DNA from: Mobula hypostoma
Taxonomy: Eukaryota
DNA length: 64,000 bases
NCBI RefSeq assembly: GCF_963921235.1
Contig: NC_086097.1
Coordinates: forward strand, 114,144,001-114,208,000
Direction: 5' to 3'
Made by a program: the position numbers and the translations under genes. The notes under the pieces were generated by a model. The model did not search any database. It was not told the DNA's origin and saw only the letters and a list, made by a program, of their open reading frames with translations. Positions 3,894-62,837 of the stretch are shown here, in pieces. Each line of letters starts with the position of its first letter. The first letter of the stretch is position 1.

Positions 3894-6800
3894 AAGATGG
3901 CACCAGTGAACAATGCTACCAAGGGAGATATTCTCGAGGCAGTTTATGAAACTACTCCTTTCACCACTTTTGTGTCTTCCTTTTATTTCAAATGTGGTTC
4001 TGGTACTGTTGGAGCCCATGATCTACTGTTCAAAACCTGTGATCTACATTCTAGTGCTGTGTTTTCGGGCTGATCGAGTGATCTGGTGCTTTGCTGTCTC
4101 CGAGAGGGTTTTTCCGAGGCGGCGAGCGAAACGTGTGGAGCGAAGGCCCGGAAGCCTGGAGACAGGGTGCAGGCCCACGATCAACTCCATCTCTCACCCA
4201 TCTTGCCGAGTGAAGTGCCGATGAAGACTGAAGTCGTTGAGAAGAGCGTGGAGGACGAGCGAGTGCTTAGCAGCATGCTGCCAGAAGACGGTGTCTACAT
4301 GTGACAGTCCTTCTCTCCTTCTTGCTTGCTGCTCCTGAGGGAAGGTCTCTGCATTCAATAGACAATAGGTGCAGGAGTAGGCCATTCAGCCCTTCGAGCC
4401 AGCACCACCATTCACTGTGATCATGGCTGATCATGCACAATCAGTACCCTTTTCCCACCTTCTCCCTATATCCCTTCACTCCACTATCTTTAAGAGCTCT
4501 ATCTAACTCTTTTTTGAAAGAATCCAGAAAATTGGCCTCCACTGCCTTCTGAGGCAGAGCATTCCACAGAACCACAACCCTCTGTGTGAAAAAGTTTTTC
4601 CTCAACTCCGTTCTAAATTGTCTACACCTTATTCTTAAACTGTGGCCTCTGGTTCTGGACTCCCCCAACATCGGGAACATGTCTCCTGCCCCTAGCATGT
4701 CCAATCCCTTAATAATCTTATATGTTTCAATCAGATTCCCTCTCATCCTTCTAAATTCCAGTGTATACAACCCCAGTCGCTCCAATCTTTCAACATATGA
4801 CAGTCCTGCCATCCCGGGAATTAACCTCGTGATCCTACGCTGCACTCCGTCAATAGCTAGAATGTCCTTTCTCAAATTTGGAGACCAAAACTGTACACAA
4901 TACTCCAGGTGTGGTCTCACCAGGGCCATGTACAACTGCAGAAGGACCTCTTTGCTCCTATACTCAATTCCCCTTGTTATGAAGGCCAATATGCCATTAG
5001 CTTTCCTCACTGCCTGCTGTACCTGCATGCTTACTTTCAGTGACTGATGAACAAGGACACCTAGATCTCGTTGTACTTCCCCTTTTCCTAAATTGACACC
5101 ACTCAGATAGTAATCTGCCTTCCTGTTCTTGCCACCAAAGTGGATAACCTCACATTTATCCACATTAAACTGCATCTACCATGCATCTGCCCACTCACCC
5201 AACCTGTCCAAGTCACCCTGCATTCTCATAACATCCTCCTCATATTTCACACTGCCACCCAGCTTTGTGTCATCTGCAAATTTGCTAATGTTACTTTTAA
5301 TCCCTTCATCTAAATCATTAATGTCTCTTGTAAATAGCTGCGGTCCCAGCACTGAGCCTTGCGGTACCCCACTAGTCACTGCCTGCCATTCTGAAAAGGA
5401 CCCATTAATCCCTACTCTTTGTTTCCTGTCTGCCAACCAATTTTCTATCCATGTCAGTACCCTACCCCCAATACCATTTGCTCCAATTTTGCCCACTAAC
5501 CTCCTATGTGGGACCTTATCAAAGGCTTTCTGAAAGTCCAGGTACACCACATCCACTGGCTCTCCCTTGTCCATTTTCATAGTTACATTCTCAAAAAATT
5601 CCAGAAGATTAGTCAAGCATGATTTCCCTTTCATAAATCCATGCTGACTCGGACCTATCCTGCCACTGCTATCCAAATATGCCGCTATTTCATCTTTCAT
5701 AATTGATTCCAGCATCTTCCCCACCACTGATGTCAGACTAACTGGTCTATAATTTCCTGTTTTCTCTCTCCCTCCTTTCTTAAAAAGTGGGATAACATTA
5801 GCTACCCTCCAATCTGCAGGAACTGATCCTGAATCTATAGAACATTGGAAAATGATTACCAATGCGTCTATGCTTTCTAGAGCCACCTCCTTAAGTACCC
5901 TGGGATGCAGACCATCAGGCCCTGGGGATTTATCAACCTTCAGTCCCATCAGTTTACCTAACACCATTTTGTGCCTGATGCGAATTTCCTTCAGTTCCTC
6001 TGTTACCCTAGGTCCTCTGGCCACTATTACATTTGGGAGATTGTTTGTGTCTTCCCTAGTGAAGACAGATCCAAAGTACCTGTTCAGCTCATCTGCCATT
6101 TCCTTGTTCCCCATAATAATTTCACCCATTTCTGTCTTCAAGGGCCCAACTTTGGTCTAACTAATTTTTTTCCTCTTCACATACCTAAAGAAGCTTTTAC
6201 TATCCTCCTTTATATTCTTGGCTAGCTTACCTTCGTACCTCATCTTTTCCCCCGTGTTGCCTTTTTAGTTATCTTCTGTTGCTCCTTAAAAGTCTCCCAA
6301 TCCTCTGGCTTCCCATTCATCCTTGCTATGTTATACTTCCTCACTTTTATTTTTATACTGTCTTTGATTTCCCTTGTCGTCCACGGTTGCCCCTTACTCC
6401 CCTTAGAACCTTTCTTCCTCTTTGGAATGAACTGATCCTGCATCTCTGTATTATTCCCAGAAATACCTGCCATTGTTGTTCCACAGTCATCCCTTCTAGG
6501 GTATCCCTCCAGTCAACTTTGGCCAGCTCCTCCCTCATTTGTCCATAGTCCCCTTTGCTCAACTGTAATACTGACATTTCCAATCATCCCTTCTCCCTCT
6601 CAAATTGTAGATTAAAACTTATCATATTATGGTCACTACCTCCTAATGGCTCCTTTACCTCAAGTTCCCTTATCAAATCTGGCTCATTACACAACACTAA
6701 ATCCAGAATTGCCTTTTTCCTGGTAGGCTCTAATACAAGCTGCCCTTTCTTGGGGTCTAGTACCAATTTGATTTTCCCAGTCTACCTGCATGTTAAAATC

Positions 6801-8555
6801 CCCCATAACAACCGTAGAATTACCTTTGCGACATGCCAATTTTAACTCTTGATTTAACTTGCACCCTATATCCAGGCTACTGTTTGGAGGCCTGTAGATG
6901 ACTCCCATCAGGGGCTTTTTACCCTTACAGTTTCTTAGTTCTATCCATACTGACTCTACATCTCCTGATTCTATGTCCCCCCTCGCAAGTGACTGAATTT
7001 CATTCCTCACCAATAGAGCCACCCCACCTCCTCTGCCAGCCTGCCTGTCCTTTGATAGGATGTATGTTCTGAATATTCATTTCCCAGCCCTGGTCCTCTT
7101 GCAGCCATGTCTCTGTTATCTCCACAACGTCATACTTGCCAATTTCCAACTGAGCCTCAAGCTCATCCACTTTATTTCTTATACTCCATGCATTCATATG
7201 TAATATTTTTAATCCTTTTAAAGTAATACTTTTACTCCCCTCACCTTTCACATCGATTCCTATTGCACTTGGCCATACTCTCCAATCCCTTCCTGATCTT
7301 TCTGCCCCTTTAATTCTGTTGTCTTTCTTAACTTTTCTTATTCTCTCATTCCCTTTAACTCCATTCTTACATTTCCAGTTCGTCCCCTCCCCTCCCCCTC
7401 TCCCCCCCCCGCCACTACTTAGTTTAAACACACCCGTGTAGCAGTGGAAAACCTGCCTGCCAGAATGCCGGTCTCCCCTCTGTTAAGGTGCAACTCGTCC
7501 CTTCTGTACAATTCATCCTTACCCCAAAACAGATCCCAGTGGTCCAAGAATCTAAATCCCTGCTTCCTGCACCAACTCCTCAGCCACACGTTCAGATCCC
7601 CTATCTCCCTGTTCCTGCCCTCTCCAGCACAAGGAACTGGAAGCAAACCGGAGATAACCACCCTTGAGGTCCTGCTTTTCAGCCTTCTTCCGAGTTCTCT
7701 GAAATCACGTTGCAAAATGTGTCTTATCTTCTTCCCGACGGCATTTGTGCCGACATGCACCACCACCTCCGGCTGATCACCTTCTCCCTGAGGACGCCCT
7801 GCAATTGGTCTGTGACATCCTGGATCCTGGCACCAGGGAGGCAACACACCATCCTTAAATCCCGCCTGTTGCCGCAGAAGCCCCTATCTGTACCTCTCAC
7901 TATGGAGTCCCCTACTACCATGACTCTGCCTGACATCTGTTTCCTTGGCTTTATTTCAGCGCCAATTTTTGACTTGCAGACCCGTCCACCTCTCGCAGTG
8001 TCTTCTGTCCTGACAGCTTCCAAGAGGCTGAACCTGTTTTCAAGAAGCACATCCCCCAGGGTCTCCTGTACTCCAAGCATCCATCCCTTCCTCATCGTCA
8101 CCCCCCCCCCCGCCTTCTCTCTTCTGCTATCTTTGGTGTAACGATCTCGCTGCAGGTCCTGTCCAGAAAACTCTCGGTTTCCCGGATGAACCTGAGGTTA
8201 TCCAGTTGCCTCTCCAGTGCCTCAATCTGGTCCTTCAGGAGCTGAACCTGGACACACTTTCCATATTTGTAGCAGGCATTCAACTGGTCGCTCTCTCTCT
8301 CTTGATGTTAACGGAGGAAGGTGCCGGAGCAAGGTTTAATCGCAGTGGTTTATGGGTTGGACTCTAATTCATGGAAGATATTTCTAGTTTTTCTGGTTGC
8401 TTCTCTTTTCGGTTCCTAGTTTGGGAGATTTTGAATTGGGGCGACCTTTCTATTCGACCATGTTCCATAGTTTTCTTTGCTTCCTGGCTGTCTGCATCTC
8501 AGGGTTCTATGCTACATAATAATGAATAATGAATGTACTTTGAATCCTTTGAATA
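3894..8555 (+). mobile_element. Non-coding retroposon with Rex1-like tail, split by a CR1 into 3894-4358 and 8284-8555
   Basis: The joined halves align by eye with the uninterrupted relative at about 14950-15545; ends in ...GAATGTACTTTGAATCCTTTGAAT. Confidence 0.6.
4359..8275 (-). mobile_element. Near full-length CR1 LINE (5'-truncated ORF1 with zipper and SGNH esterase; ORF2 APE endonuclease and RT), inactivated
   Basis: VVGDSIVRG and VVVHVGTN (esterase); IYRPPN, MGDFN, GSDHN (APE); YLDFQKAFDKVPH, GVPQGSVLGP, KFADD (RT). In-frame stop at 5176-5178 and several frameshifts; 8-bp TSD GCATTCAA at 4351-4358 and 8276-8283. Confidence 0.97.
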
Positions 8556-28372: not shown

Positions 28373-29027
28373 ATGTATTGCACTGCTCATGCCTACCATC
28401 CACAGCTTTATTTATTTTCATCTAATAAATTTCTGGAATCATTTTTATGACCCAAAGGAAGGGAAAACCTAACTGAATGTAAAATGACCTGTCAATTTGT
28501 TTATCGCCTATTTCGATCTAGTGGAACCTGTTAAAATTGACATCAATATTAATTAAATTGTTCATTGTAATTTTGTCTGTGTATATTACATCTTTAATTT
28601 CAGACTATGAAAATAAATGATCAGTAAATAGAAACATGTTAAAATAAATCTTTAATTTAAATTGAATTGAAAACATATCAAATTATACTTACAACCATTT
28701 CTATGTGCATCACTTTAACAATCATAAGTTTATTAATTACTTAATAATATACAGCCTATGAGAGTTTTCACTGGCTTGGCACCATTCCTATTAATCAAAC
28801 TTAACAATAAAGATTAGAGAATGATTACCAATGAATTGCACAACAGTTACCATAACTGGGTACAAAGTCATTGAATAACTTACTGCCAGATAACATTAAT
28901 TTATTAACTACTTTTGTCAAATTCTGAATAAATTTGATGGCAACTGGATATAATAGCCAACAGCAGGACAAGTAGCATATGCTAAAACTTACTGACAGTC
29001 AGAAATGAACAAAATATGTAACTTATA

Positions 29028-29201
29028 CTATTCTACTCTATGTAGAGCATCCACTGGACAGATATTTCCAAATTCATTCTGTGGACCTCTGATGAATTCC
29101 ATAATTTTGGAAACCAGCTGCTCCTTTTTGTCCCTCGTTCTCACAGAAACACCACGACACTTTAGCCAAGATTGGAGAGTGGCACTATTTACTTTAAACA
29201 G
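29028..29201 (-). CDS. C18orf63: Terminal coding exon, SAP/Ku70-C-like helical module: LFKVNSATLQSWLKCRGVSVRTRDKKEQLVSKIMEFIRGPQNEFGNICPVDALHRVE*
   Basis: TTTGTCTCTACAG acceptor, phase 0, stop at 29028; pattern L-x-K-V-x3-T-L-x3-L-K-x-R-G...K-x2-L-V; candidate AATAAA signals on the minus strand near 28900 and 28729. Linkage to the upstream exons is inferred from strand and phase. Confidence 0.8.
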   Translation of the reverse strand: MFKVNSATLQSWLKCRGVSVRTRDKKEQLVSKIMEFIRGPQNEFGNICPVDALHRVE

Positions 29202-30317
29202 CTGTAGAGACAAATAAACTGAGATGACCAAAACTACTTTTCCAGTTTTTAAATCATGATCTAATTGTTCAATTGTATAAGATAATAAAATTTCAGAAAG
29301 GATAAAATAATTTTGCAAAATTTACATTAAGTAGCTTAAAGAACCTTCAGCGCTCATTATTACCACATATTAAATGGACACTCCACAATATCTAACTTGA
29401 AACATCCATTTACCAGAGTAAGTCACTTTTATTTCTCCTCTTTACATTAGTACAGCAAGTTTAAAAGTGTTTTTTCCACATCTAATATTGAATATTGATG
29501 GAAACTCAAGAAGCTTCCATTGATGTTTTGCTGATTTTGTAATAGAAGTTCCACTTTAATATCAAAACTCCTTGCATTCTACAATGACCTTCAATCACAT
29601 CCATCACTCTCCATACAATCCCCTCTCTGACGTACTAGTCATTGTTTCACATTAGAATTATAAAAACATTACTCATCCAAGAAAGCAAAGCAGCTGTAGC
29701 AGCAACAGAAATGAACGAACTTTAACCATGCTTTGCCATCTAACATCTTGTTGTATCATGTGTTCTATGCAGTTTTTCCACACAATTCTCATTCTCTCCA
29801 ATTCCTTCTCAACCCCATTCCCCTGCTTTTTTCCTGTAACCTGTCAATCTCTGCCTTAAATATACCCAATGATTTGACCTTATTGTCCAAAGATGTTTTT
29901 TCCCCACCTTAAATGTACTTTTTATGCTTTAAATCAGACTGGATTTATAAACCGCAATCTTATTCACTTAACACAAGTGAATAAATATATAAACATGCCC
30001 TTGCATAAAATCAGATAGTTTTTACCACAGTTAAATATGAAAAAGAACATGTTTTCCACTGCTTTGATATTTTTACTGAAACAAATCAAAATCAGTAAGC
30101 TAAATAGAACAGATAACCTACTGCCCTTGTAGTGCATATGTACAAGGTTACGCAGTGAGTTAAACTCTTTCTCAAAAAGCACTCAAGACAGAAGCTTTCT
30201 TCACGATTTTTAATGAGATCTATCTTGTGAAACTGCAGAATTCAATATAGGATAGTCACACGCCTGAATATATTAATACTGTTGATTATTCTCACAATTG
30301 GTGTGAACCAAGGTGTT

Positions 30318-30340
30318 ACACACACACACACACACACACA
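30318..30340. repeat. (CA)n microsatellite
   Basis: About 11 CA units read directly. Confidence 0.9.
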
Positions 30341-30489
30341 CTCTTCATAATTATGCTGTGTAAACAAGAGTAAACTAAAAACGCAACAATATCTTAATAA
30401 CAATAAGTAATAAACACAATACTTCCTTCCAAATATATCTACTATATGTTTACTAGTATTAGCAAAGCTTAAGACTCACAGATATTAAC

Positions 30490-31425
30490 TAAGAACATAG
30501 GAAATAGGAGTAGGCCATCTGGCTTGTCAAGTCTGCTTTGCCATTCAATAAGATCATGGCTGATCTGGCGATGGACTCATCTCCACCTACCTTCCTTTTC
30601 CCCATAACTCTTAATAACCCTACTATGCAAAATTCTATCCAACCTTGTCTTAAGTATATTTACTGAGGTAGCCTCCACTGCTTCATTAGGCTGAGAATTC
30701 CACAGATTCACCACTCTCTGGAAAAAGCAGTTCCTCCTCATCTCTGTCCTAAATCTACTCTGCCAAATCTTGAGGCTATGTCCCCTAGTGCTAGTCTCAC
30801 CTACCAGTGTAAACAACTTTGCTGCCTCTAGCTTACCTATCCCTTTCATAATATTATTTGTTTCTATAAGATCTCCTCTCATTCTTCTGAATTCCAGCAA
30901 GTACAGTCCCAGGCAACTCAATCTCTCCTCTTAGTCTAACCCCTTTATCTCTGGAACCATCCAGGTGAACCTCCTCTGCATTGACTCCAAAGCCAGTATA
31001 TCGTTCCTCAAGTATGGAGACCAGAACTGCACACAGTACTCCAGGTGCAGCCTCACCAGTACCCTGTACAGTTGCAGCATAGCCTCCCTGCTCTTAAATT
31101 AAATCACTCTGGCAATGAACATTCCATTTGTCTTCTTGATAGTTGCACTTGAAAACCAGCCTTTTGCGATTCATGCACAATCACTCCCAAGTCCCTCTGC
31201 ACAGCAGCATGCTGCAATTTTGTTACCATTTAAATAATAATCTGCTCTTCCATTTTCCTTCCGAAGTGGATGACTTTGCATTTACCAACATTGTACTCCA
31301 TCTGCCAGACCCTTGCCCACTCACTTAACCTATCTATATCTCTCTTCAGACTCTGTATTTTCTTCACAATTTGCTTTTCCACTCAATTTAGTATCATCAG
31401 CAAACTTCGATACATTACACTCAGT
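30490..31425 (-). mobile_element. CR1 3' fragment (intronic)
   Basis: ORF 30577..30921 LEFRRMRGDLIET...TRGHSLKI...QRVVNLWNS. Confidence 0.92.
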
Positions 31426-31789
31426 CACTATTGGTACACTACTGCTGTTTTAAGGGCAATTGAAGAGAGAATGGAGATCGATGTCTTTCCACCATGTGCT
31501 TCAAAAATTAATCCAAATTAACCTGCGCAGGCAATGATTTTAAAACAGCTTATGTACCAGAAGTGATATTCATACAAAACGAACTGCTCCTCTGGAGGAC
31601 ATAACAACCCCACTTCCCCTCCCCATCTGGCATCCATAGAATGTCAAGCTTAACGACTGAAATATTGAAAGTAAAAGTCAAAGGATCTTTTGATTAAGTC
31701 TTTGATAAAGATGGATAGTTTCAAAGGCTAGCCTTGAAATCAGTCTTACTGCTTAACTGTTTTCACATCGAAAATACCAGCTTTGATGT

Positions 31790-34700
31790 TGTTACTGGTA
31801 GATATCAGCAAGAAATGTGGGGCCAGTTAACCATGAAAAGAGAGTGAGCTGATGAGCCGGGTTGAGATCAGTAGGAACATAGTTTCATTTGCTCTTCTAA
31901 GTTGATCGTCTGATATGTTGGAACTTATTAAGTACATGAACATAGTATCTCCTTGTTTCATTAAGTATATAATCGAGCACAACCTTGTTGTTGGTAAAGA
32001 ACTTGAATTCATCTACTTCTGTGTCCAGATCTTCAGTTATCATCTCTGTCATCTCAACTGCTAGAACAGCAGCACCAAGTTCAAGCCTTGGTTTGAGATC
32101 TGGTTTGGAGCAAGCTTTGCCTTGCCCAGGATCCAACTTAACTATATCCAGCAGCATCTGTGACCTTCAGATGTGCAACAACACTAACAGCTTTAATTGA
32201 TGCATCATAGGAAGTGCTGACCTCTTTCTTTTGAGCCGCAGATAGCAGAATTGTTGTGTAGGTTCTTAGAATCTTCAAGCTTTTAAGATCCTTAAGGGAA
32301 GAACACCACTGCTGCCATCGTTCATGTTTCTCTTTAGGGAGTGGGACATCTCATCCACAAATGTCCAAGGTCAACTCTCTTAACATGAAACATCCCTGGA
32401 TACTGACTGGAGCAGAAACTCCAAAAGGGTCAAATAGATTGTTGGTAGTCGATAGCACACCACAATGCATAAAGAATATTTTAGTATCAGTGACCTTTAA
32501 AGTAAGGGCTTCAGTAATGAGGCCCCATCCAAGGCCCAGACTGTGCCGCATAGGAGGGAGGTACTATTAAAATCAAGATTCTGTAGACTTTTGGCCAGGT
32601 CTTCAGGTGGGAAATATTACATGGTTGGATACAATCTTATACTGCTAAGATCAGACTGCAGCAACATGTTCTGTGCAGCTTTCGGCATACTCACAGCTTC
32701 TTCTGCACTAGAAAATTACTTAAGACCATAAGACCATAAGACAAAGGAGCAGAAGTCGGCCATTCGGCCTATCGAGTCTGCTCCACCATTTTATCACGAG
32801 CTGATCCATTCTCCCATTTAGTCCCACTCCCCCGCCTTCTCACCATAACCTTTGATGCCCTGGCTACTCAGATACCTATCAATCTCTGCCTTAAATACAC
32901 CCAGTGACTTGGCCTCCACTGCTGCCTGTGGCAACAAATTCCATAGATTCACCACCCTCTGACTAAAAAAAATTTCTTCGCATTTCTGTTCTGAATGGGC
33001 GCCCTTCAATCCTTAAGTCATGCCCTCTCGTACTAGACTCCCCCATCATGGGAAACAACTTTGCCACATTCACTCTGTCCATGCCTTTCAACATTCGAAA
33101 TGTTTCTATGAGGTCTCCCCTCATTCTTCTAAACTCCAAGGAATACAGTCCAAGAGCAGACAAACGTTCCTCATATGTTAACCCTCTCATTCCCAGAAAC
33201 ATTCTAGTGAATCTTCTCTGTACCCTCTCCAACGTCAGCACATCCTTTTTTAAATAAGGAGAGCAAAACTGCCCACAGTACTCCAAGTGAGGTCTCACCA
33301 GCGCCTTATAGAGCCTCAACATCACATCCCTGCTCCTATACATCAACATAGAAATGGCTCTCTATGTACCTCCACGCTTCAGTCTTGAACTCTTTATCTT
33401 CCTCGAAAGCTGTCTTAAGGCCATAGCTTGCCACAGATAGTGAGGGAATACATAAACTCTCACGTGATACTGCAGAATCTCGTTACTCAGTTGGTGGTCA
33501 CGAATCCACAAAAACCAGAGGTTGGTTCGCTGATCTTCTCTCACTAGGAAGCTGTGGAACATTTGCTTGATGTCTGCCATTACTGTGATGGACTAAGTTC
33601 TGTTGCGCAAAAGGACCCCAAGCAAACTGTTATTGATGTCTGGACCCTGAAAGTGCATATTTTTCAGTGATACACCTTTGAAATGTTACTTTACTTTACT
33701 GTCGCCAAACAATTGATACTGGAACGATACTGAATCATCACAGCGATATTGGATTCTGCACTTCATGTGTACTTAAATCAAAGACATTTCATATTTGTGC
33801 AGGTTTCTGGGTGTGGTAAACACCAAAGGTGGGCAAATACTAGTTATCTTTACTGGGATCGGGTGGAGGCGCTAACTCTGCTTGATTGAAGGGTCACTCT
33901 ATGAACTCTGCATAATGATCTTCCATTTCTGGTTTCCTTCTCAATGTGTGATTGAGGGACATGAGGGCCTGCTCTCCGTTGTTTCGTTGGAGTGTTGTGG
34001 AAAGCAGAAAGGAAGGGGAACTACCAAACTGTTTGACTTCTTTGCTAAACTCTGTTCATGATTTGAAGGAAGACCTCATTTTCGATGGAAGGTGCCATCT
34101 TAAAATTATCTTCTGAGTGACAGAAGATCAGCTTGGTTGAGCAGAGGCAAGTATATCAGAGCACTTGGCTTGCATATTGACAATCTTCTCTTTCATCCAG
34201 ATTCTATCTTTGCAGGGTTTGAAATGCCCTGTTCTCTGGGACTTTACTCTTAAATGTGCTGACAGCGGGCTGATGGCACCATTGAGGCAGACCACCCACT
34301 ATAACCCAACCCAGGTCATGTCACTGGGCATAAGGTGCACTGTGTCAACCATTGTGCTGTTCACATACCTCATGTGCATGGATGGTGTCTCTGCTAAGTA
34401 ACAGTAGAATCTCACCAAGAGTCAAGTGGGGGAGTCTTGTCAGTTATAGACTTAAGATAGGAATGACCCCATGCAGCTTCAGGAATTGGGATTTCATCCC
34501 TGTTGTTGAGAATATGGTCGCTTTCAATGAGGGATGGCAAGGGTAAGCAGACCTCCCCTCCTGTTGACTTCATGACAAATCCACTGACTTTTCTTCCAGC
34601 ATTTTCAGATATTCCAGAACATCTTTAGATTGTATGGGGAAACAAAATTTTGTTTACCGAATGTCAAAGAACGTTGATGATGGGAACGTTGTGATGGGAA

Positions 34701-34790
34701 CACTTTGCACCTAGTGATGCCATTAGTTTCAATAATCTGGATGATAATGTAGTAAACTGGATCAGCAAGTTTGTGGTTGACACCAGGCTT
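31790..34790 (-). mobile_element. BEL/Pao LTR-retrotransposon pol remnant (RT, RNase H), interrupted by a CR1 and a short LINE tail
   Basis: ADIKQMFHSFLV...FLW (RT), reconstructed HFYVDDGL, LFDPFGVSAPV, PRLELGAAVLAV and KVVLDYI.NETRRY are BEL/Pao hallmarks; many stops. Confidence 0.88.
32730..33340 (-). mobile_element. CR1 3' fragment nested in the BEL RT
   Basis: ORFs 32963..33349 and 32818..33009; (TAAGACCA)n tail. Confidence 0.95.
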
Positions 34791-35192
34791 GGGGGTGTAA
34801 TGGACAGTCAAAGATTGTCAGAGGTGACAGAGAGGCCAAGGAAGCAGATTTGTTCCTTGCTGCTTGCACTCATAAAAATGACAACACGAGGCAACAGTAA
34901 AAGCAATGCTGCTTTAAATCAAATGTAGCAGGCAGCTTTAAGGAATAAGTTAGCATCCTGGCTCACAGCATGATCACTGCACTGTTAAAATATGCTTTAA
35001 CCTTTTTGATTGACCTGATTCTCGATCCCTTATACACAAGAGATATCAATTGTGATTAGAAAATTCTGAGATATTTAATTACTGCATTTGTCTTACTGAT
35101 TATACGCAAAAGTCTCTTCCGATCTACATATACTTTCATATTTGATTAAAGTTTCAATGGAAATTTTAAGTTTCAAAGTATTTCTCAGAAAC

Positions 35193-35282
35193 CTGATCAT
35201 TTTTTGCATGCTTTTCCACATCAACATCCTGGATAACTGGCTTGGTCTTGGGTTTCTTAGGTTTTGAATCGGATGCTTTCTC
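35193..35282 (-). CDS. C18orf63: Probable penultimate C18orf63 exon: EKASDSKPKKPKTKPVIQDVDVEKHAKNDQ
   Basis: Pyrimidine tract plus ACAG acceptor, CAG|GTTTCT donor, 90 bp phase 0-0, inside ORF 35166..35372; runs naturally into the SAP-like last exon. Confidence 0.78.
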
Positions 35283-38023: not shown

Positions 38024-41000
38024 ATACCCCTTTGGATACTGTTGAGGAGGATGACCTACCTGGGCAAGGCAGCAGCAGCCAGACCAATAGCACTGTTTTT
38101 GGCTCTGAGCCTCAGAAGGGAAGGGTGAAGTCAGGTGGAGCAATAGTCATAGGGGACTCGATAGTTAGGGGGACAGATAGGAGATTCTGCGGCAGCAAAA
38201 GAGATGCCAAGATTGTGTGTTGCCTCTCGGGTGCTAGGGTCAGGGATGTCTCTGAGCGATTGTAGAATATATTCTTGAGGGGAAAGGTGAGCAGCTGGAG
38301 GTCATGGTACATGTTGATACTAATGCCATAAGGAGGAGAGGTCCGCATAGTAAGTTTAGGGAGTGAGGAAGGAGGCTGAAGAGCAGGACCTCCAGGGAGG
38401 TAATCTCCAGATTACTGCCGGTGCCACGAGCTAGGGAAGGTCAGAACAGTAAGATAGCACAGATGAATAAGTGGCTGAGGAGATGGTGCAGGGGGCAGGG
38501 TTTCAAGTTGTTGGATCATTAGAACCTTCTCTGGGGAAGGGGTGATCTGTACAAGTGGGACAGGTTGCACCTGAACTGGAGGGGAACCAATATCTTAGGA
38601 TGGAGTTTTGCTAATGCTGTTGGGGACTGTTTAAACTATATCTGCAGGGGGGTGGGAACCAAAGTGAAGAGGCAGAGGATGGGGCAGTTGGCACACAAGT
38701 ACAGACAGCTTGTAGGGAGGTTGTGAGGAAGGGTAGGCAAATGATAGAGCAAAGTTGCACTCAGCCTGATGGTTTGAGATGTGTCTATTTTAATGTAATG
38801 AGTATCATAAACAAGGCGGATGAACATAGAGCGTGAATCAATACCTGAAACTATGATGTTGTGGCCATCACAGAGACTAGGATGTCTCAGGAGCAGGAAA
38901 GGCTGCTGAATGTGTCGGGCTTTAGATGTTTCAAAAAGGATAGGGAGGGAGGCAAAAGAGGTGGGGGATTAGCATTGCTAATCAAGGATACTATCAGGGC
39001 TGCAGAAAAGGAGGAAGTCAAGAAGGGATTGTGGGTCATTGTGGGTGGCAGTCAGAAACAAAAAGGGGCAATAACTCTACTAGGTGTTCTTATAGAACCC
39101 CCTCCCCCCCAGAATAGTAATAGAGACATTGAGGAGCAGATAGGGAGGCAGACTCTGGAACGGTGCCATAATAATAGGGTTGTTGTGGTGGGTGATTTTA
39201 ACCTTCCTAATATTGACTGGCATTTCCTTAGAGCAAGGGGTGTAGATGGTGTGGAGTTTGTTAGGTGCGTTCAGGAAGATTTCCTGACATAATATGTAGA
39301 TAAACCAACTAGAGGAGAGGCTGTACTTGATCTGGTATTGGGAAATGAACCTGGTCAGGTGTCAGATCTCTCGGTGCGAGAACATTTTGGAGGTAGTGAT
39401 ATCAACTCTATCGCCTTTACCATAGCGTTAGAGAGGTACAGGAGCAGACAATTTGGGAAAACATTTAATTGGGGTAGGGGGTAATATGATACTATTAGGC
39501 GGGAACATGGGAACAGAAATTGGTAGCAGATGTTCTCTGGGAAATGCACGGCAGAAATGTGGCAAATGTTCAGGGTATACCTGCATAGCATTCTGCATAG
39601 GTATGTTCCATTGAGGCAGGGAAAGAAAGGATGGTAGGGTAAAAGAATAATGGTGTACAAAGGATATAGAAAATCTAGTTAAGAAGAAAAGAAAAGCTTA
39701 CAAAAGGTTCAAGAAACTAGGTACTGTTAGAGCTCGAGAAAATTACAAGGGTGCCAAGAAGGAGCTCAAGAATGAAATTTGGGGAGCTGGAAGGAGCCAT
39801 GAGAAGGCCTTGGTGAGCAGGATTATGGAAAACCCCAAGCAATACTTTGCTTCAATATTTACTAGTGAGAAGAAACTTGGCAATTGTGGGGTAGACCTAC
39901 AACGGACTGAAACGCTCGAGTGTATAGACATTAAGAAAGAGGATGTGCTAGGAACTTTTGACAGGTATTAAGTTAGATAAGTTGCTGGGACTGGACGAGA
40001 TATACCCCTGCAACACACACAAAATGCTGGATGAACTCAGCAGGCCAGGCAACATCTATGGAAAAAAGTACAGCTGACGTTTCAGGCCGTAACATCAACT
40101 GTACTTTTTTTTGCCTGTCCTGATGAGTTTCTCCAGCATTTTGTGTGTGTTGCATGGATTTCCAACATCTTCAGCTTTTCTCTTGTTTGAGATATACCCC
40201 AGGCTACTGTGGGAAATGAGGGAGGAGATTGCCGAGCTTCTGGCGATGATCTTTGCATTATCAATAAGGATGGGAGAAATACCAGAGGATTGGAAGGTTG
40301 AAAACATTGTTCCCCTGTTCATGAAAGGGAGTAGAGATAATCCAAGAAATTATAGACCAGTGAGCCTTACTTCAGTGGTGGGCAAGTTGTTGGAGGAGAT
40401 CCTGAGAGGCAGGATTTATGAGCATTTGGAGAGACATAATCTGATTAGGGACAGTCAGCATGGCTTTTTCAAGGGCAGGTCATGCCTTACAAACCTGATT
40501 GAATTCTTTAAAGATGTAACAAAACACACTGATGAAGGTAGAGCAGTGGATATAGTGTACATGGATTTCAGTAAGCCATTTGATAAGGTTCCCCATGTAA
40601 GGTTCATTCAGAAAGTATTGAGCTTGGGATCCAAGGAGAACATGCTCTGTGGATCCAGAACTGGCTTGCCCACAGAAGGCTAAGGGTGGTCCTAGATGGT
40701 TTGTATTCTGCATGAAGGACGGTGACCAGTGGTATTCCACAGAGATCTGTTCTGGTACACCTCCTGTTTGTGATTTTCATAAATGACCTAGATGAGGAAG
40801 TAAAAGGGTGGATAGGTAAGTTTCCTGATGACTCAAAAGTTGGGGGTGTTGTGGATAGTTTGGAGGGCTGTCAGAGGTTAGGATGCAGAACTGGGCTGAG
40901 AAGTGGCAGATGGAGTTCAAACCGGATAAGTGTGAAGTGGTTCACTTTGGTAGGTCAAATTTGAAGACAGAATATAATATTAATGGTAAGACTCTTGGCA

Positions 41001-47155: not shown

Positions 47156-47716
47156 TGAATTGAGCAGAAGGTTAAATTATAGTTCAGAAACTATGAAGAT
47201 ACCATGGTTAGGAATTTGACTGATAATGGAATGGGAGTTGAACACAAAGATTTAAAAGTAGTGAGAATAATGGAAAACAGTGAGTTGTTCAAATAAGGAA
47301 AAAGAGAAATGGAGGAAATGACCAAGGTTAGATTTGATAATAAGAGTCAATGAACTATCTCAGCAATGTTAACAAAGGTAGCTAGATTCAGATAAGGAGG
47401 CCTCATTGAGGGAAAAGATGTTAGGTGATTCCACTGTATAGACTTGGTGAAATCAGCTACGTCTTCACCAAGTCTATACAGCTGAATCACCTAGAATAAA
47501 CATTTGGTTGTCTAGATATTTTTCACAAATGAACTGACATCTGTAGAGAAGGTGCTGGTAGGACAGTTAGCTAATTCCTTGACTGAATCTACCGAGTCAG
47601 AAAATGAAGAGTTGAATAAATTGAGAAAGAGATCGTCAAGATTTCACAATGAGTAGGAAAAAAAACAATGAAAGAAGGCTTTGCAGCTCATAAAAAGATA
47701 GTTTTTAAAAAAGCTT

Positions 47717-49080
47717 TTGAGCCCACTGGCCTGCTTTGACAGGTTGGTTATGACTAGACTGAACTCCTGCCTCAGCAAGGACCTGGTCCCATTGCAATTT
47801 GCCTATCACCACAATAGGTCAACAGCAAACACAATCTCAATAGCTCTCCACATGACTTTAGATCACCTAGACAACATAAACACCTACGTCAGGATGCTGT
47901 TCATAGACTATAGCTCAGCATTTAATACCATCATTCCCATAATGCTGATTGAGAAGTTGCAGAACCTGGGCCTCTGTACCTCCCTTTGCAATTGGATCCT
48001 CGACTTCCTAACCAGAAGACCACAGTCTTTGTGGATTGGTGGTAACACATCCTCCTCGCTGACGATCAACACTGGTGCACCTCAGGGGTGTGCGCTTAGC
48101 CCACTGCTCTACCCTCTATATACACATGACTGTGTGACTAAGCATAGCTCAAATACCATCTATAAATTTGCTGACGACACAACCATTGTTGGTGGCATCT
48201 CAGGTGGTGATGAGAGGGTGTACAGGAGTGAGATATGCTAAATGGTGGAATGGTGCTGCAGCAACAACAACCTGGCACTTAATGTCAGTGAGACGAAAGA
48301 GCTGATTGTGGACTTCAGGAAGGGTAAGACGAAGGAACACATCCCAATCCTCATAGAGGGATCAGAAGTGGAGAAAGTGAGCAGTTTCAATTTCCTGGGT
48401 GTCAAGATCTCTGAGGATCTAACCTGGTCCCAACATATCGATGTAGTTATAAAGAAGGCAAAACAGTGGCTATGCTTTGTTAAGAGTTTGAAGAAATTTG
48501 GCATGTCAACAAATACTCTCAAAAAGTTGTATCGTGGAGAGCATTCTAACAGGCTGTGTCACTGTCTGGTAATGGAGGGGCTAAAACACAGGACCGAAAG
48601 AAGCTGCAGATGGTTGTAAATTTAGTCGGCTCCATCTTGGGCACTAGCCTACAAAGTACCCAGGACATCTTTGGGGAGCAGTGTCTCAGAAAGGCAGCGT
48701 CCATTATTAAGGACCTCCAGCACCCAGGGCATGCCCTTTTCTCACTGTTACCATCAGGTAGGAGGTAGAAAAGGCTGAAGGCACACACTCAGTGATTCAG
48801 GAACAGCTCCTTGCCCTCTGCCATCTGATTCCTAAATGGATATTGAAGCTTTGGACACTACCTCACTTTTTTTCCCCAAATATACAGTATTTTTATGCAC
48901 TTTTTAAATCTATTCAATATATGTAATTGATTTACTTGTTTATTTATTATTATGATCTTTTATTTTATTTATTATTATTATTATTTTTCTCTCTGCTAGA
49001 TTATGTATTACATTGAACAGCTGTTGCTAAGTTAATAAATTTCACGTCACATGCCGGTGATAATAAACCTGATTCTGATC
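47717..49080 (+). mobile_element. Rex1/Babar-type LINE, 5'-truncated RT plus 3' UTR
   Basis: [62 protein letters not shown]; tail AATAAACCTGATTCTGA. Confidence 0.93.
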
Positions 49081-50456: not shown

Positions 50457-50576
50457 TTCACATTTCCTTTTTTCTGTTCCTTTATCAGAATAATTCAGTC
50501 CCGTCAGAGACTTTGAACTGAGCTGTTGAAAATTAGTTTGCTTTTCTTGCTTCTTTATATCAAACACACCAGATAC
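50457..50576 (-). CDS. C18orf63: Probable C18orf63 exon: VSGVFDIKKQEKQTNFQQLSSKSLTGLNYSDKGTEKRKCE
   Basis: TTTTGTGCTTCAG acceptor, GTAAGC donor, exactly 120 bp open frame, phase 0-0, non-repetitive. Supported by splice signals and frame only. Confidence 0.72.
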
Positions 50577-52469: not shown

Positions 52470-52816
52470 TAAAGAAATAAGAAAATTAAGCTATGGAAAT
52501 GTTCAACTTCACCTGTATCAAGGATTTAAAAATTTACTAACAATTGATGCATGATTTTTAACCATACTGATATTTTTATAATAGGTATATCACCAAATAG
52601 CTGCTTTAAAGTGGTTACTTTCATCTATGAAAAATCTAATTATATGAGGAATTATATGGACAAGAAATTACTTGCATCATAAGTGCATCTATTTTTATAA
52701 TATGTTTAAAATAGCAAGCAAATTCAATGAAAGCAATAGAAAATTCAAATGATTTGAAATAAGAAAATATCTCACTTGTTTCTGTTCATTTCCCAATAGG
52801 TTATGAATCCACTTAC

Positions 52817-53599
52817 GTGATCAAAGGTTGTAGGAACTGTTGTATTTTTATCTCCAAATTGTGTATTTATATTGCTCTGTTCTTGGATATTTTTTAATTC
52901 TTTAAGTGTCGTATCTCCAGACTTCAGCATTCTTGGATTTGACTTGAGAAGCAGAGTATCCTTGCGTATGTTTACCATGGATTCTAAACTTGAATTCTGT
53001 AGCTGTTTAATAGTTGGTGTTGTTACACTTGTATATATATTTGTCTCTTGCTTTTGGGCTTCATCAAACAAGTCGACTTTTTTATTACTGCGTTCCCTCT
53101 CTTGTACATTCATTGGAGTTTTTACATTTATATTAGCATTTGATAAATTTGATGGTTTTTTGGAATTTTCATCTTGCTTAGTTTTCTTCTCATAAATTCT
53201 TGAACTTAAGGAATTACCTTGCTTCAGTAGCCTGCTTTTAAATATGGGTATAATCCTGGAAGCCTGGTTAGTTGAATTAGAATGCATTTCCATCTGATGG
53301 TACGTGCCTGACCCAGCAAACTGGATTGTTCCTTTTTGCAAATTCTGGAAAACCACTTCAGGTTTTTCTGTTGATTCGAATATCCTTTCACATAATCCAG
53401 TAGCACGTATTGGTGCTGCATCTAAATTTGCTTTTCTATCCAATTTCTGCTCATTGTCTAAAACTGTGGTCTTTTGACTTCCATTAATTGAACAAATAGA
53501 AGAGGTTTCACTGATAGTTATTTTGGCAGTTGGAATTTGTATTAAGTTATTCTTGAAGATAGGATTAGTTGTCAGATTTGGAGGCCTTGCCTGAACTGC
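52817..53599 (-). CDS. C18orf63: C18orf63 homologue large exon, 261 aa, S/T/K/N/Q-rich: AVQARPPNLTT...IIPIFKSRLL...PTTFDH
   Basis: Lies within stop-free ORF 52772..53614; TAAG acceptor (an in-frame CAG 9 nt further in is an alternative) and GTAAGT donor; 783 bp, phase 0-0. PPNLTT and PIFKSRLL match recalled human PPNLTT and PVFKNRLL. Confidence 0.88.
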
Positions 53600-53912: not shown

Positions 53913-55881
53913 ACCGAAGGATGAGTTAGTAAGAGATTTGAAAGTGGGAGGGGGAGGGGGAGATCCAAAATGATAGGAGAAGACAGGAGGGGGAGGGATG
54001 GAGCCAGGAGCTGTACAGGTGATTGGCAAAAGGGATATGGGAGGATCATGGGACAGGAGGTCCGGGGAGAAAGACGGGGGGGGGGGACCCAGAGGATGGG
54101 CAAGGGGTATAGTCAGAGGGACAGAGGGAGAAAAAGGAGAGTGAGAGAAAAAATGTGTGTATAAAAATAAATAACAGATGGGGTACAAGGGGGAGGTGAG
54201 GCATTAGCGGAAGTTAGAGAAGTCAATGTTCAGGTTGGAGGCTACCCAGATGGAATATAAGGTGTTGTTCCTCCAACCTGAGTGTGGCTTCATCTTTACA
54301 GTAGAGGAGGCCGTGGATAGACATGCCAGAATGGGAATAGGATGTGGAATTAAAATGTGTGGCCACTGGGAGATCCTGCTTTCTCTGGCGGACAGAGCGT
54401 AGGTGTTCAGCAAAGCGGTCTCCCAGTCTGTGTCGGGTCTCGCCAATATATAGAAGGCCACATCGGAAGCACCGGACGCAGTATATCACCCCAGCCGACT
54501 CACAGGTGAAGTGTCGCCTCACCTGGAAGGACTGTCTGGGGCCCTGAATGGTGGTAAGGGAGGAAGTGTAAGGGCATGTGTAGCACTTGTTCCGCTTCCA
54601 AGGATAAGTGCCAGGAGGGAGATCAGTGGGGAGGGATGGGGGGGGGAACGAATGGACAAGGGAGTCACGTAGGGAGCGATCCCTGCGGAAAGCGGGGGGG
54701 GGGAGGGAAAGATGTGCTTAGTGGTGGGATCCCTTTGGAGGTGGCAGAAGTTACGGAGAATAATATGTTGGACCCGGAGGCTGGTGGGGTGGTAGGTGAG
54801 GACCAGGGGAACCCTATTCCTAGTGGGGTGGCGGGAGGATGGAGTGAGAGCAGATGTGCATGAAATGGGGGAGTTGCGTTTGATAGCAGAGTTGATAGTG
54901 GAGGAAGGGAAGCCCCTTTCTTTAAAAAAGGAGGACATCTCCCTCGTCCTGGAATGAAAAGCCTCATCCTGAGAGCAGATAAGGAGGAGACGGAGGAATT
55001 GCGAGAAGTGGATGGCATTTTTGCAAGGGACAGGGTGAGAAGAGGAATAGTCCAGATAGCTGTGAAAGTCAGTAGGCTTATAGTAGAAATCAGTAGATAA
55101 GCTGTCTCCAGAGACAGAGACAGAAAGATCTAGAAAGGGGAAGGAGGTGTTGGAAATGGACCAGGTAAACTTGAGGGCAGGGTGAAAGTTGGAGGCAAAG
55201 TTAATAAAGTCAATGAGCTCAGCATGCGTGCAGGATGCAGCACCAATGCAGTCGTCGATGTAGCGAAGGAAAAGTGGGGGACAGATACCAGAATAGGCAC
55301 GGAACATAGGTTGTTCCACAAAGCCAACAAAAAGGCAGGCATAGCTAGGACCCATACGGGCACACCTTTAGTTTGGAGGAAGTGGGAGGAGCCAAATGAG
55401 AAATTATTAAGAGTAAGGACTAATTCCGCTAGACGGAGCAGAGTGATGGTAGAGGGGAACTGATTAGGTCTGGAATCCAAAAAGAAGCAGAGAGCTTTGA
55501 GACCTTCCTGATGGGGGATGGAAGTATATAGGGACTGGACATCCATGGTGAAAATAAAGCGGTGGGGGCCAGGGAACTTAAAATCATCGAAAAGTTTAAG
55601 AGCGTGAGAAGTGTCACGAACATAGGTAGGAAGGGATTGAACAAGGGGGGATAAAACCGTGTCGAGGTATGCAGAAATGAATTCGGTGGGGCAGGAGCAA
55701 GCTGAGACAATAGGTCTGCCAGATCTTCCCGGTCAGGGAATTAAAATATCCTCTCATATCCCCTTTGCCAATCACCTGTCCAGCCCTTGGCTCCATCCCT
55801 CCCCCTCCTGTTTTCTCCTATCATTTTGGATCTCCCCCTCCCCCTCCCACTTTCAAATCTCTTACTAACTCTTCCTTCAGT

Positions 55882-56354: not shown

Positions 56355-56532
56355 CTGAGAAACACTGAATTCATTGGTAGCATAGTAGGGTTTGCTGGTT
56401 ATTTTTATTGGTAATCCACAGAGACTAGAGAATGTTATTTTTAGGTCAGAAAAGAAAGATGTTAGTACTGATTCCAAGTCCACTCTCGGGTAAAACTGAA
56501 CAGGTTCACTTCTAATACAACAAAAAGGGTAA
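56355..56532 (-). CDS. C18orf63: C18orf63 homologue exon: (T)YPFCCIRSEPVQFYPRVDLESVLTSFFSDLKITFSSLCGLPIKITSKPYYATNEFSVSQ
   Basis: TTCAG acceptor, GTAAGA donor, 178 bp (phase 2 to 0); overlaps ORF 56292..56483; resembles recalled human YPLSCIRSQPMQFFPRVD...CGFPIKMTSKP. Confidence 0.92.
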
Positions 56533-58047
56533 CTGAATTATTATGTTAAGGATGTTCACTGTGATAGTATTTAGCACATATTTACGAATCAGATATATAA
56601 AGACTCCAAATTTTTTTTTAACTTCTTTATGTCCACTGATATAATACTTTCAATAAATATGCTGTACTACTCTTCAGTCCATAAATTAACCTACCAGTTC
56701 AAATCAGTTTTCTTCTTTTTAGCAGAACTGAATATCATCCTAAGTAGGACATCATTGAAGATCATCTATGTCAAGAAGGAAACTTACCGTCCAATGTATC
56801 ACCAGAGTACTACAGCCTCATGAAAATACTAGTTAGCAAATCAATAATAGTAATCTGAAAGTTTACGTAAACTAATTACACCACTGTTTATGCTTAACGG
56901 AAGTAATTATGAAATATACATGGCTCTTCATAAACAAAATATTTTTGCTTTCATTTCTTCATACTCGTTAGCTACAGATGTCTGACAGGTCATGATATCA
57001 TACTCTTCTGTACAGTATAGTAGAAGGATTCTATAGGCTCTGAAAACTATGCTAATGAGAATGGAGAGAATACCTAATAAATGAGCTCACCTCCCTAATA
57101 TCAACACAAAACTCTGAGCTAGAAAATTCTGGAGCTGGGGTTCAAACTTCCTAACAGTATTGCCACAGGACTGAAGTCAATTGTCAGTAAACATCTAAAG
57201 TAAGAACAATTAATACTGGAAGCAGTTAGGTCTAATGGAGTATGCGGAGGCAAGAAGTTACAGTTAATCAGTCAGATCTTTTGATGATTGGCAAAACACC
57301 GAAGGTCACTGGTCACCCAGGCACACTCTTCTGTTGAAAAACTGGATCCCAGCAGATCAGCAAGTCATGGGACAACTTTCTGGATGATATTTCACTTCAC
57401 TACGTTTGTTGTAACAGTGTAACTATGGCAGTTGCAAGGGTCCTGATGGAGTCTCAGAGGAGGCCAGGAGGGAAAATTAAGAAAAAGAGATGAAGAGAAC
57501 ATGAAGGATTGGAGCAATTGAAAATGCTCCAGTGAAGGGGAGGGGGGAGGAAATTGTTTGAATATGGAATTCAGGAAACTGAATTGCTTCCATTCATAGT
57601 AAGTTCTTGGTCTTCTTTGTTGCAACTAATCCTGAAGTCTGACTTCTATAAACTCAGACCACCATGGGTCTTTATAAATGGATAAAGAATGCCTCTTGTT
57701 TATCATTACCTAAAATGCCAGATGATGCAATGCTGGCCAGCAAAGAATGCACACATCTTTGCTATGATGCCGGTGCCTCGTTAATGTAGATAATGGCCTA
57801 ACCAAAATTGTGCAGACCATTTGGCACTTCTACATAGGCTGTGCTCTACTAAATATCTTTCAGCATGAACATTATTTGGTTAAAATCCCACAAATCAGCA
57901 CCTTAAAGAATACTGAACTGGACAATTTTGATTACTTTCCTTGAAGGAGTTTGTTTTATACTTTATAATTTAACAAATAAGTTTTGCATGGATTTGAAAT
58001 ATAAAACTGTCTATAATTTTAATATAATCTTTTTACATCAAGGATAC

Positions 58048-62723: not shown

Positions 62724-62837
<114 letters not shown>

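Follow-up and report, generated by a model that had tools for sequence, protein, structure and literature searches.

The DNA analyzed here is a 64,000-nucleotide stretch of contig NC_086097.1 from Mobula hypostoma (assembly GCF_963921235.1, positions 114,144,001 to 114,208,000; hereafter the window, in which coordinates are counted from the first letter). It carries, on the minus strand, seven coding exons of a gene that, judging from its sequence, is the orthologue of C18orf63, a member of the DUF4708 family (PF15813). We conclude with high confidence that the C18orf63 proteins are a single-copy eumetazoan family in which, by predicted structure, an N-L1-PAZ-L2 lobe, the front half of an Argonaute, is followed by about 300 disordered residues, a basic patch and a three-helix SAP/HeH module; MID and PIWI domains are absent. 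The parts are of known kinds; the combination of a stand-alone eukaryotic Argonaute N-lobe with a tethered SAP module was not found described. An arrangement consisting of the Argonaute front half only has so far been described in prokaryotic split systems (PMC10954474). The literature search found no account of the SAP module, its loss in amniotes or an Argonaute fold for C18orf63 or DUF4708, although the ECOD, InterPro and AlphaFold databases and subscription journals, which lay outside its scope, may list the fold. None of the listed papers on C18orf63 is mechanistic by its title and the start of its abstract, DUF4708 as a query gave no papers, and neither name is mentioned in the ECOD human-proteome paper (text and supplements) or in the supplements of the 48-proteome paper. 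The architecture would give a conserved, unstudied human gene of meiotic entry a testable identity, namely the front half of an Argonaute lacking the part that binds the guide and cuts.

The N-terminal lobe and the C-terminal module

The N-terminal region appears to be a stronger functional clue than the C-terminal module, one that the initial annotation of this locus missed. AlphaFold2 was run on the full-length stingray orthologue of C18orf63 (P0004, whose numbering is used for domains and conserved residues) with a 115-row alignment. The model is folded up to about residue 336, with a predicted local distance difference test (pLDDT) score of 94-98 over residues 11-310 and one block at 87. 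No secondary structure is modelled for residues 340-655, where pLDDT is mostly <50; they form a linker of about 300 residues with low conservation, so that the flexible tether proposed in the initial annotation is borne out by prediction. A Foldseek search started with the full-length model identifies first chain D of the human CDK8 kinase module (best E 1.3e-7), and all 42 of the 42 rows shown are Argonaute/PIWI entries or CDK8 kinase-module chains. The latter chains (8tqc_D, 7kpv_D) we take to be the MED13 subunit, in keeping with PMC7810384. In an unbiased VIA search, the 12 best rows all belong to the Argonaute superfamily (Z 13.5 to 7.9), namely two kinase-module chains (Z 13.5 and 12.3) and then ten entries that are Argonautes or their partner subunits (Z 9.6-7.9). 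The best match outside the superfamily scores Z 7.8 over 71 residues. A second fold search aligns 269 residues with MED13 (Z 13.6, root mean square deviation (rmsd) 4.8) and 271 with MILI (Z 11.4, rmsd 4.6). The Argonaute-type match is limited to residues 7-337. By a separate method, a comparison of language-model features against an atlas of protein clusters, residues 1-335 match a PAZ cluster first (0.89), and PAZ/ArgoL1/ArgoN sets occur in 7 of the 10 atlas rows shown. At the level of predicted structure, these results point to DUF4708 as an N-L1-PAZ-L2 lobe of the Argonaute type.

The PAZ domain is probably retained, given that the alignments with MED13 and MILI cover 254-278 residues vs 162-182 for PAZ-less prokaryotic partner subunits. 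The most conserved block of the family is a set of mostly aromatic residues in the PAZ-like region (F220, Y223, W230, Y234, Y236, F253, Y263, P264 and C267), with conservation of 89-97% in 101 non-amniote rows and 86-100% in 14 amniote rows; the PAZ10 mutant of AGO2 alters a similar aromatic set (PMC11240694). Among these, W230, Y234 and Y263 are named residues suitable for mutation.

Several observations weigh against the assignment to the Argonaute superfamily. Human AGO2, too, aligns over just about 175 residues, which weakens the argument from alignment length, and the equation of the conserved aromatics with the PAZ pocket is a tentative one, made on their similar kind and order. The structural matches show 4-14% identity and an rmsd of 4-7 Å, and the atlas score of 0.89, with 144 shared features, lies below the thresholds of that method and is a lead only. 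At the sequence level, no Argonaute link is seen: Pfam profiles for PAZ, ArgoN and Med13 have no match in 22 N-domain rows, and in PDB sequence-profile searches the N-domain profile gave 0 matches and two other profiles only low-complexity ones. Dicer platform-PAZ entries are not among the 50 rows listed in two fold searches, a list from which absence does not mean exclusion. In prokaryotic genomes, 30 pattern matches were obtained, none of them a relative.

The second half of an Argonaute is absent. The Piwi and MID profiles of Pfam have no match in 39 proteins, and residues 340-655 are unstructured and poorly conserved, so that no region of the protein can be either domain. It follows that C18orf63 cannot hold a 5'-anchored guide or slice.

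At the C-terminus, the initial annotation saw a SAP/HeH-like fold with the spacing of the Ku70 C-terminus, and structure prediction supports this view. The AlphaFold2 model contains three helices (660-665, 674-683 and 694-706; pLDDT 90-98), which are identical when the module is folded on its own. The second and third form the helix-extended loop-helix of about 35 residues that is typical of the SAP/HeH fold group, and helix 660-665 corresponds to the extra N-terminal helix of the Ku70 type. A wide VIA search of 48,161 chains identifies, at the top, residues 46-104 of RESC-A chain 2 (Z 6.8, rmsd 1.9, 54 aligned), and also Ku70-C (PDB 1jjr; Z 5.5, rmsd 2.2 over 51 of 54 residues) and Rho-N (Z 5.3), followed by T4 EndoVII, CARP2 and the SAP/LEM domains of SF3B2, E1B-AP5, emerin, Hcc-1, SLX4 and PIAS1. 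The top 16 rows are mostly SAP, LEM, Rho-N and EndoVII-C domains, and the compact matches have an rmsd of 1.5-2.3 over 40-51 residues. Foldseek finds nothing for the module at E<=0.001.

In Pfam searches, the last exon matches SAP (E 0.003) and HeH (E 0.045), both under the cut-offs: the SAP score (PF02037) is 17.6 bits, with 19.6 as the best of 39 proteins, vs a gathering threshold of 23.9, and the best scores for HeH/LEM (PF12949; 27.2 vs 28.9) and Ish1 (PF10281; 22.6 vs 26.6) both come from the jellyfish protein P0230. Matches to SAP, HeH or Ish1 at E<=0.1 are found in 18 of 31 non-amniote proteins vs none of 8 amniote proteins. A hidden Markov model (HMM) of the module, made from 15 named invertebrates only, singles out the last exon among 2109 open reading frames (ORFs) of the window (E 1.7e-13; next best, E 1.1), so its identification as the module is not due to chance. 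The atlas features place the module in a SAP cluster with a score of at most 0.78, a lead only, and a PDB-chain sequence search started with the last exon yields two chance matches and no SAP domain. Given the agreement between the coherent list of folds, the weak profile matches and the atlas cluster, the module, confidently modelled as three helices, can be assigned, at the level of modelled structure, to the SAP/HeH-type fold, below Pfam membership.

Conservation of the module (0.49-0.57) equals that of the N-lobe, vs 0.10-0.17 in most blocks of the linker, and its net charge is +1 to +7 (median +4 in 89 rows), with conserved lysines and arginines. As in the Ku70 C-terminal SAP domain, a short helix and a helix-extended loop-helix stand at the C-terminus behind a flexible basic linker, and the basic surface and the glycine at the loop start are retained, the latter (G685) in 74% of 101 rows, some of which lack the module. 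SAP domains have conserved glycines at both the start and the end of the loop (SDE2 preprint 10.1101/2022.05.09.490802), whereas here the loop ends in D/E-K-K with no second glycine. Identity to members of the SAP/HeH group is just 12-16%, the module, where it matches the profiles, has two residues more than SAP but aligns with HeH without a gap, and its top match is RESC-A rather than Ku70-C. The charge and the fold are compatible with nucleic-acid binding. Points against are that Z values of 4-7, modest as they are, lie in a range that a small helical bundle can reach by chance, that no Pfam score exceeds its cut-off, and that SAP/LEM-type folds among the VIA matches also bind proteins, as in the structure entries of CDNF/MANF with BiP and emerin with BAF.

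Two atlas clusters with resemblance to the N-lobe deserve mention. The second-ranked match is a cluster of 360-amino-acid Bacillota proteins with no Pfam family (0.87), possibly a stand-alone prokaryotic Argonaute N-lobe. At rank 24, a Streptophyta cluster (534 amino acids, 74 members, SAP in 64%) resembles the same region (0.77, 122 of 256 features), even though the query left out the SAP module; it might be a plant counterpart with the same architecture, which, if true, would make this architecture older than animals.

Distribution of the module and its loss in amniotes

The distribution was examined in a set comprising the best 120 of 253 matches and the best 150 of 530 representatives, with 30 of 134 new ones named; the counts are of protein clusters, some of which are isoforms of one species, and the sampling of birds is sparse. 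Of 53 non-amniote vertebrate proteins, 51 carry the module (chondrichthyans 17/19, ray-finned fish 20/20, coelacanth 1/1, amphibians 13/13), the two chondrichthyan exceptions looking like truncated models. So do 15 of the 20 named invertebrates, including a jellyfish, a soft coral, three bivalves, a leech, a tick and eight insects. Its presence in cnidarians, molluscs, an annelid and arthropods makes it older than vertebrates. The module, by this sequence distribution, is ancestral to cnidarians and bilaterians, and its original description as a feature of the ancestral vertebrate protein sets its origin far too late. The module is found in none of 78 amniote proteins (12 turtle, 3 crocodilian, 1 bird, 5 squamate, 3 monotreme, 4 marsupial and 50 placental), and the human protein (P0087) lacks it, as the initial annotation had stated. 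That annotation also had some lineages losing the module; the loss is seen, but among vertebrates it is confined to a single clade and mostly to a single codon.

A tree of the N-lobe (48 chosen rows) follows the vertebrate species tree, as expected of orthologues, and joins its 14 amniotes in one branch with support of 94/91, short of the starred level. Four label changes on this tree suffice to explain the presence of the module: one in amniotes and the others in a tick, a wasp and a pair of clams, where incomplete models may account for some of them. The clam proteins P0171 and P0181 end in basic tails, and two metagenome loci (L001:1-2300 and L002:1-2300) contain a 697-residue C18orf63 frame that ends after a basic patch with no module; these are probable independent losses.

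When the proteins are aligned on the basic patch, turtles, crocodilians, the rhea, a lizard, a snake, four marsupials and many placentals stop at the Q column of the I-Q-D-V-D motif (three rows of this protein alignment have no anchor, and the meerkat row is mis-anchored). In horse, rhinoceros, Myotis, Pteropus and meerkat (by pattern) and in Miniopterus (in the alignment), the frame reads through, with Y, R or S in the Q column followed by N-M/V-D-V/A/M, a tail in which the first helix of the module persists in decayed form. A single base separates a stop from the glutamine codons, and likewise from codons for Y, S and R. The simplest history, as we infer from the proteins, is thus that one mutation turned the Q codon into a stop in the amniote stem and that the frame was later read through in some mammals. 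If so, this is a clean, datable loss of a domain by a premature stop, with a fossil reading frame reopened in some mammals. That the apparent loss instead represents several losses or an annotation artefact has, in our estimate, a rather small probability. By a simple pattern, the end falls 7-9 residues past the basic patch in only 38 of the 78 amniote proteins; the others differ in where they stop, that exon is missing from the platypus model, a one-residue gap is needed for sauropsids and a gecko stops one codon later; moreover, the branch support is below the starred level and the comparison is of proteins. Against this stand the common stop column of such diverse amniotes, the read-through residues at one base from a stop with the same motif behind them (five by pattern and one in the alignment) and the complete absence of the module from the 78 proteins.

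Possible functions of C18orf63

In human testis, C18orf63 has been described as an uncharacterised but highly specific member of a meiosis component (PMC9792524) and as upregulated in pre-leptotene cells (PMC12081002), and it is oocyte-enriched in chicken and human fetal ovary (PMC9570461, PMC12055976). Expression at meiotic entry favours a guide-free end reader in germ-cell nuclei. Accordingly, the best explanation that we can offer, one for which the considerations for and against are evenly balanced, is that C18orf63 is a guide-free binder of nucleic-acid ends that acts at meiotic entry in germ-cell nuclei and is provided with an accessory chromatin tether. The PAZ-like pocket would grip the 3' end of an RNA or DNA single strand. 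The basic SAP module, held by a long tether, would bind duplex DNA or chromatin without sequence preference and might speed loading, as the SAP domain of Ku70 does; the latter aids loading yet is dispensable in plants (PMC10681742). The tether would be accessory, such that a nonsense change at one Q codon in the amniote stem could remove it without any loss of conservation in the N-lobe. The gene structure, the distribution, the predicted folds and the place of the stops are observations, whereas nucleic-acid binding by either domain, the nuclear site and a meiotic role in the ray belong to the proposal. The whole N-lobe superposes on long Argonautes (MILI and SIWI of the PIWI clade, the AGO clade and long prokaryotic Argonautes; Z 8.5-11.4), and the conservation of aromatics is likewise concentrated in the PAZ-like region; unlike these proteins, C18orf63 has neither a 5'-end pocket nor an RNase H domain and hence no guide-directed slicing.

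The proposed end-binding role faces several difficulties. All the expression data come from amniotes, that is, from animals without the module. Male mice lacking Gm17266, a name borne by a rodent C18orf63 orthologue among the matches, are reported second-hand to be fertile (PMC12653000), which also speaks against a vital role in mammals. Furthermore, the best structural match, MED13, has been argued not to bind nucleic acid in the manner of Argonautes (bioRxiv 10.1101/2024.10.10.617571). Given that mouse and human carry the truncated form, the mild phenotype of the mouse knockout may be a poor guide to what the ancestral protein did, and a better test would come from fish, frogs or invertebrates.

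An alternative view is that C18orf63 is a scaffold resembling the front half of a MED13-type protein, e.g., a germline modulator of the CDK8 module, in which the Argonaute fold serves protein-protein contacts and the SAP/HeH module binds chromatin or a partner protein. We consider this unlikely. Each of the three fold searches places the human and yeast CDK8-module chains at the top (Z 13.6 and 12.3 vs 11.4 for MILI; identity 11-14% vs 4-11%), and Med13, too, has a large disordered region after PAZ/L2-N (PMC7810384), so that the order of an N-L1-PAZ-L2 lobe followed by a long disordered region is common to MED13/MedPIWI and C18orf63. The protein binding by SAP/LEM folds noted above fits as well. 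In contrast to MED13, C18orf63 lacks the MID-PIWI half, has a SAP-like module in its place and is expressed in germ cells. Moreover, the Med13 profile of Pfam has no match in 39 proteins or 22 N-domain rows, the atlas features point to canonical PAZ clusters rather than to MED13, and most of the Med12-binding insertions of Med13 are located in MID/PIWI or in PAZ insertions (PMC7810384), the former of which C18orf63 does not possess.

With a lower probability still, the protein could be an accessory of small-RNA pathways, a stand-alone PAZ lobe that holds or hands over the 3' ends of precursors of PIWI-interacting RNA (piRNA) or small interfering RNA (siRNA) or competes with PIWI proteins, with the SAP module binding RNA as in ERI1/3'hExo. 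The next-best folds are indeed PIWI proteins (MILI, SIWI, EfPiwi), a Dicer-like PAZ cluster is first by atlas features, 3'hExo SAP entries are among the fold matches of the module, and expression is germline. However, the co-expressed genes named in the passages considered are meiotic-recombination and synaptonemal genes, and the reported fertility of knockout males would set C18orf63 apart from core piRNA factors.

A more far-reaching idea, to which we attach only a slim chance, is that C18orf63 represents an unrecognised branch of animal Argonautes whose free N-lobe completes a MID-PIWI-type partner in trans at meiotic entry, a eukaryotic split Argonaute whose SAP tether was dropped in the amniote ancestor. 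The least probable reading makes C18orf63 half of a split Argonaute whose other half, a MID-PIWI-only protein, is supplied in trans, as in the AfAgo-N/AfAgo or APAZ/short pAgo pairs, with the SAP module where prokaryotes fuse an effector: the architecture ends where the prokaryotic partner subunits end, SiAga1 (Z 9.5-10.0) and the HNH-, TIR- and DREN-APAZ subunits (Z 7.2-7.9) are among the matches and splitting has occurred more than once in prokaryotes (PMC10954474), but the N-lobe is predicted at pLDDT >94 on its own and vertebrates are not known to have a conserved MID-PIWI-only partner. C18orf63 shares with the split-Argonaute subunits (AfAgo-N, SiAga1, effector-APAZ) the state of a stand-alone N-lobe polypeptide; in the latter, PAZ is absent or reduced and the MID-PIWI partner is operon-linked (PMC10954474), whereas C18orf63 is eukaryotic, appears to retain PAZ and has no known partner.

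Gene structure and the rest of the window

The seven exons, joined on the minus strand from 62835 to 29028, form one open frame of 509 residues plus a stop, identical letter for letter to residues 206-714 of P0003, the NCBI protein "C18orf63-like isoform X2 [Mobula hypostoma]". This protein matches DUF4708 at 352 bits, above the curated cut-off of 27. The exons for its residues 1-205 were not found within the 64-kb window and must lie past the window end. The features are as follows.

62739..62835, minus strand: coding exon, about residues 201-233 of P0004, putative start of the PAZ-like region; tblastn 100% to residues 206-238 of P0003
58048..58133, minus strand: coding exon, PAZ-like core (conserved Y-G-Y-x-L-P ... 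F-T)
56533..58047, minus strand: U12-type (minor spliceosome) GT-AG intron within the PAZ-like region; donor GTATCCTT, branch TCCTTAAC
56355..56532, minus strand: coding exon, end of the PAZ-like region (Y-P-x-x-C), L2-like helix and end of DUF4708 (DUF4708 match, tblastn)
52817..53599, minus strand: large exon for the disordered linker, poorly conserved apart from a short P-x-F-K motif
50457..50576, minus strand: linker exon ending in a basic K-R-K patch; absent from some shark models (skipped)
35193..35282, minus strand: exon with the basic K-P-K-K patch and the first (Ku70-like extra) helix; 90 nucleotides, AG|...|GT, phase 0/0
29028..29201, minus strand: last coding exon, 174 nucleotides to the TAG stop; encodes the helix-extended loop-helix core of the SAP/HeH-like module (Pfam, AlphaFold2, fold searches)
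28688..29027, minus strand: probable 3' untranslated region, continuous with the last exon on one run X1 contig; AATAAA at 28905 and 28734, the contig end not being a demonstrated RNA end

The last three junctions are GT-AG and in phase 0. The last two exons join in frame to the DUF4708 exons and encode the tail quoted in the initial annotation, identical to that of the RefSeq Mobula hypostoma protein. That annotation called for spliced reads at two junctions. For 35193/29201, a fit was found in run X1, which is presumably RNA: a 544-letter contig (depth 22.5) matches 28688-29201 without difference and extends 30 letters past the acceptor. A second contig starts at 35222, exactly 30 bases ahead of the donor, and continues into intron sequence at depth 4.3. 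This is the pattern expected of a spliced joint beside little unspliced sequence, and it supports the splice indirectly; the 15 joints listed for run X1, out of 434, do not include this one, and runs X3 and X4 have no listed piece on the last exon. The other junction, 50457/35282, is predicted from splice sites, phase and orthologue models.

In the intron 56533-58047, the TCCTTAAC element is located 9-16 nucleotides upstream of the AG, and the U12 type is assigned from the consensus for the GTATCCTT donor and this branch site. The models P0001 and P0007 omit both exons flanking this intron, which would delete the PAZ core and the L2 helix. The frame of the large exon remains open for 45 bases beyond the P0003 donor (52772-52816); the relatives P0004 and P0005 carry about 14 extra residues at the end of this exon, and no in-frame later GT donor was found there. 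The P-x-F-K motif in the middle of the linker (about residue 439 of P0004) has P439 in at least 90% of 115 rows and a block conservation of 0.31 vs about 0.14, and is a candidate partner-binding motif. The K-R-K patch at the end of exon 50457-50576 is a possible first half of a bipartite nuclear localisation signal. Exon 35193-35282 contains the I-Q-D-V-D motif, and most amniote proteins end in the column of its Q codon. After the module, Mobula, Hypanus, Hemitrygon and Rhinoraja share a batoid-specific extension of about 15 residues (29028-29080) that is not seen in sharks or Narcine.

The window is otherwise repeat-rich animal DNA, and a search for neighbouring genes among 90 of its ORFs of at least 62 amino acids identified retroelement domains only. 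A fragmented, near-complete CR1-like long interspersed nuclear element with an SGNH/GDSL-like ORF1, an endonuclease and pieces of reverse transcriptase occupies 4441-7883 (minus strand), further reverse transcriptase fragments are located at 40093-40683 and 47702-48241, and the piece at 54223-55732 is Penelope-like.

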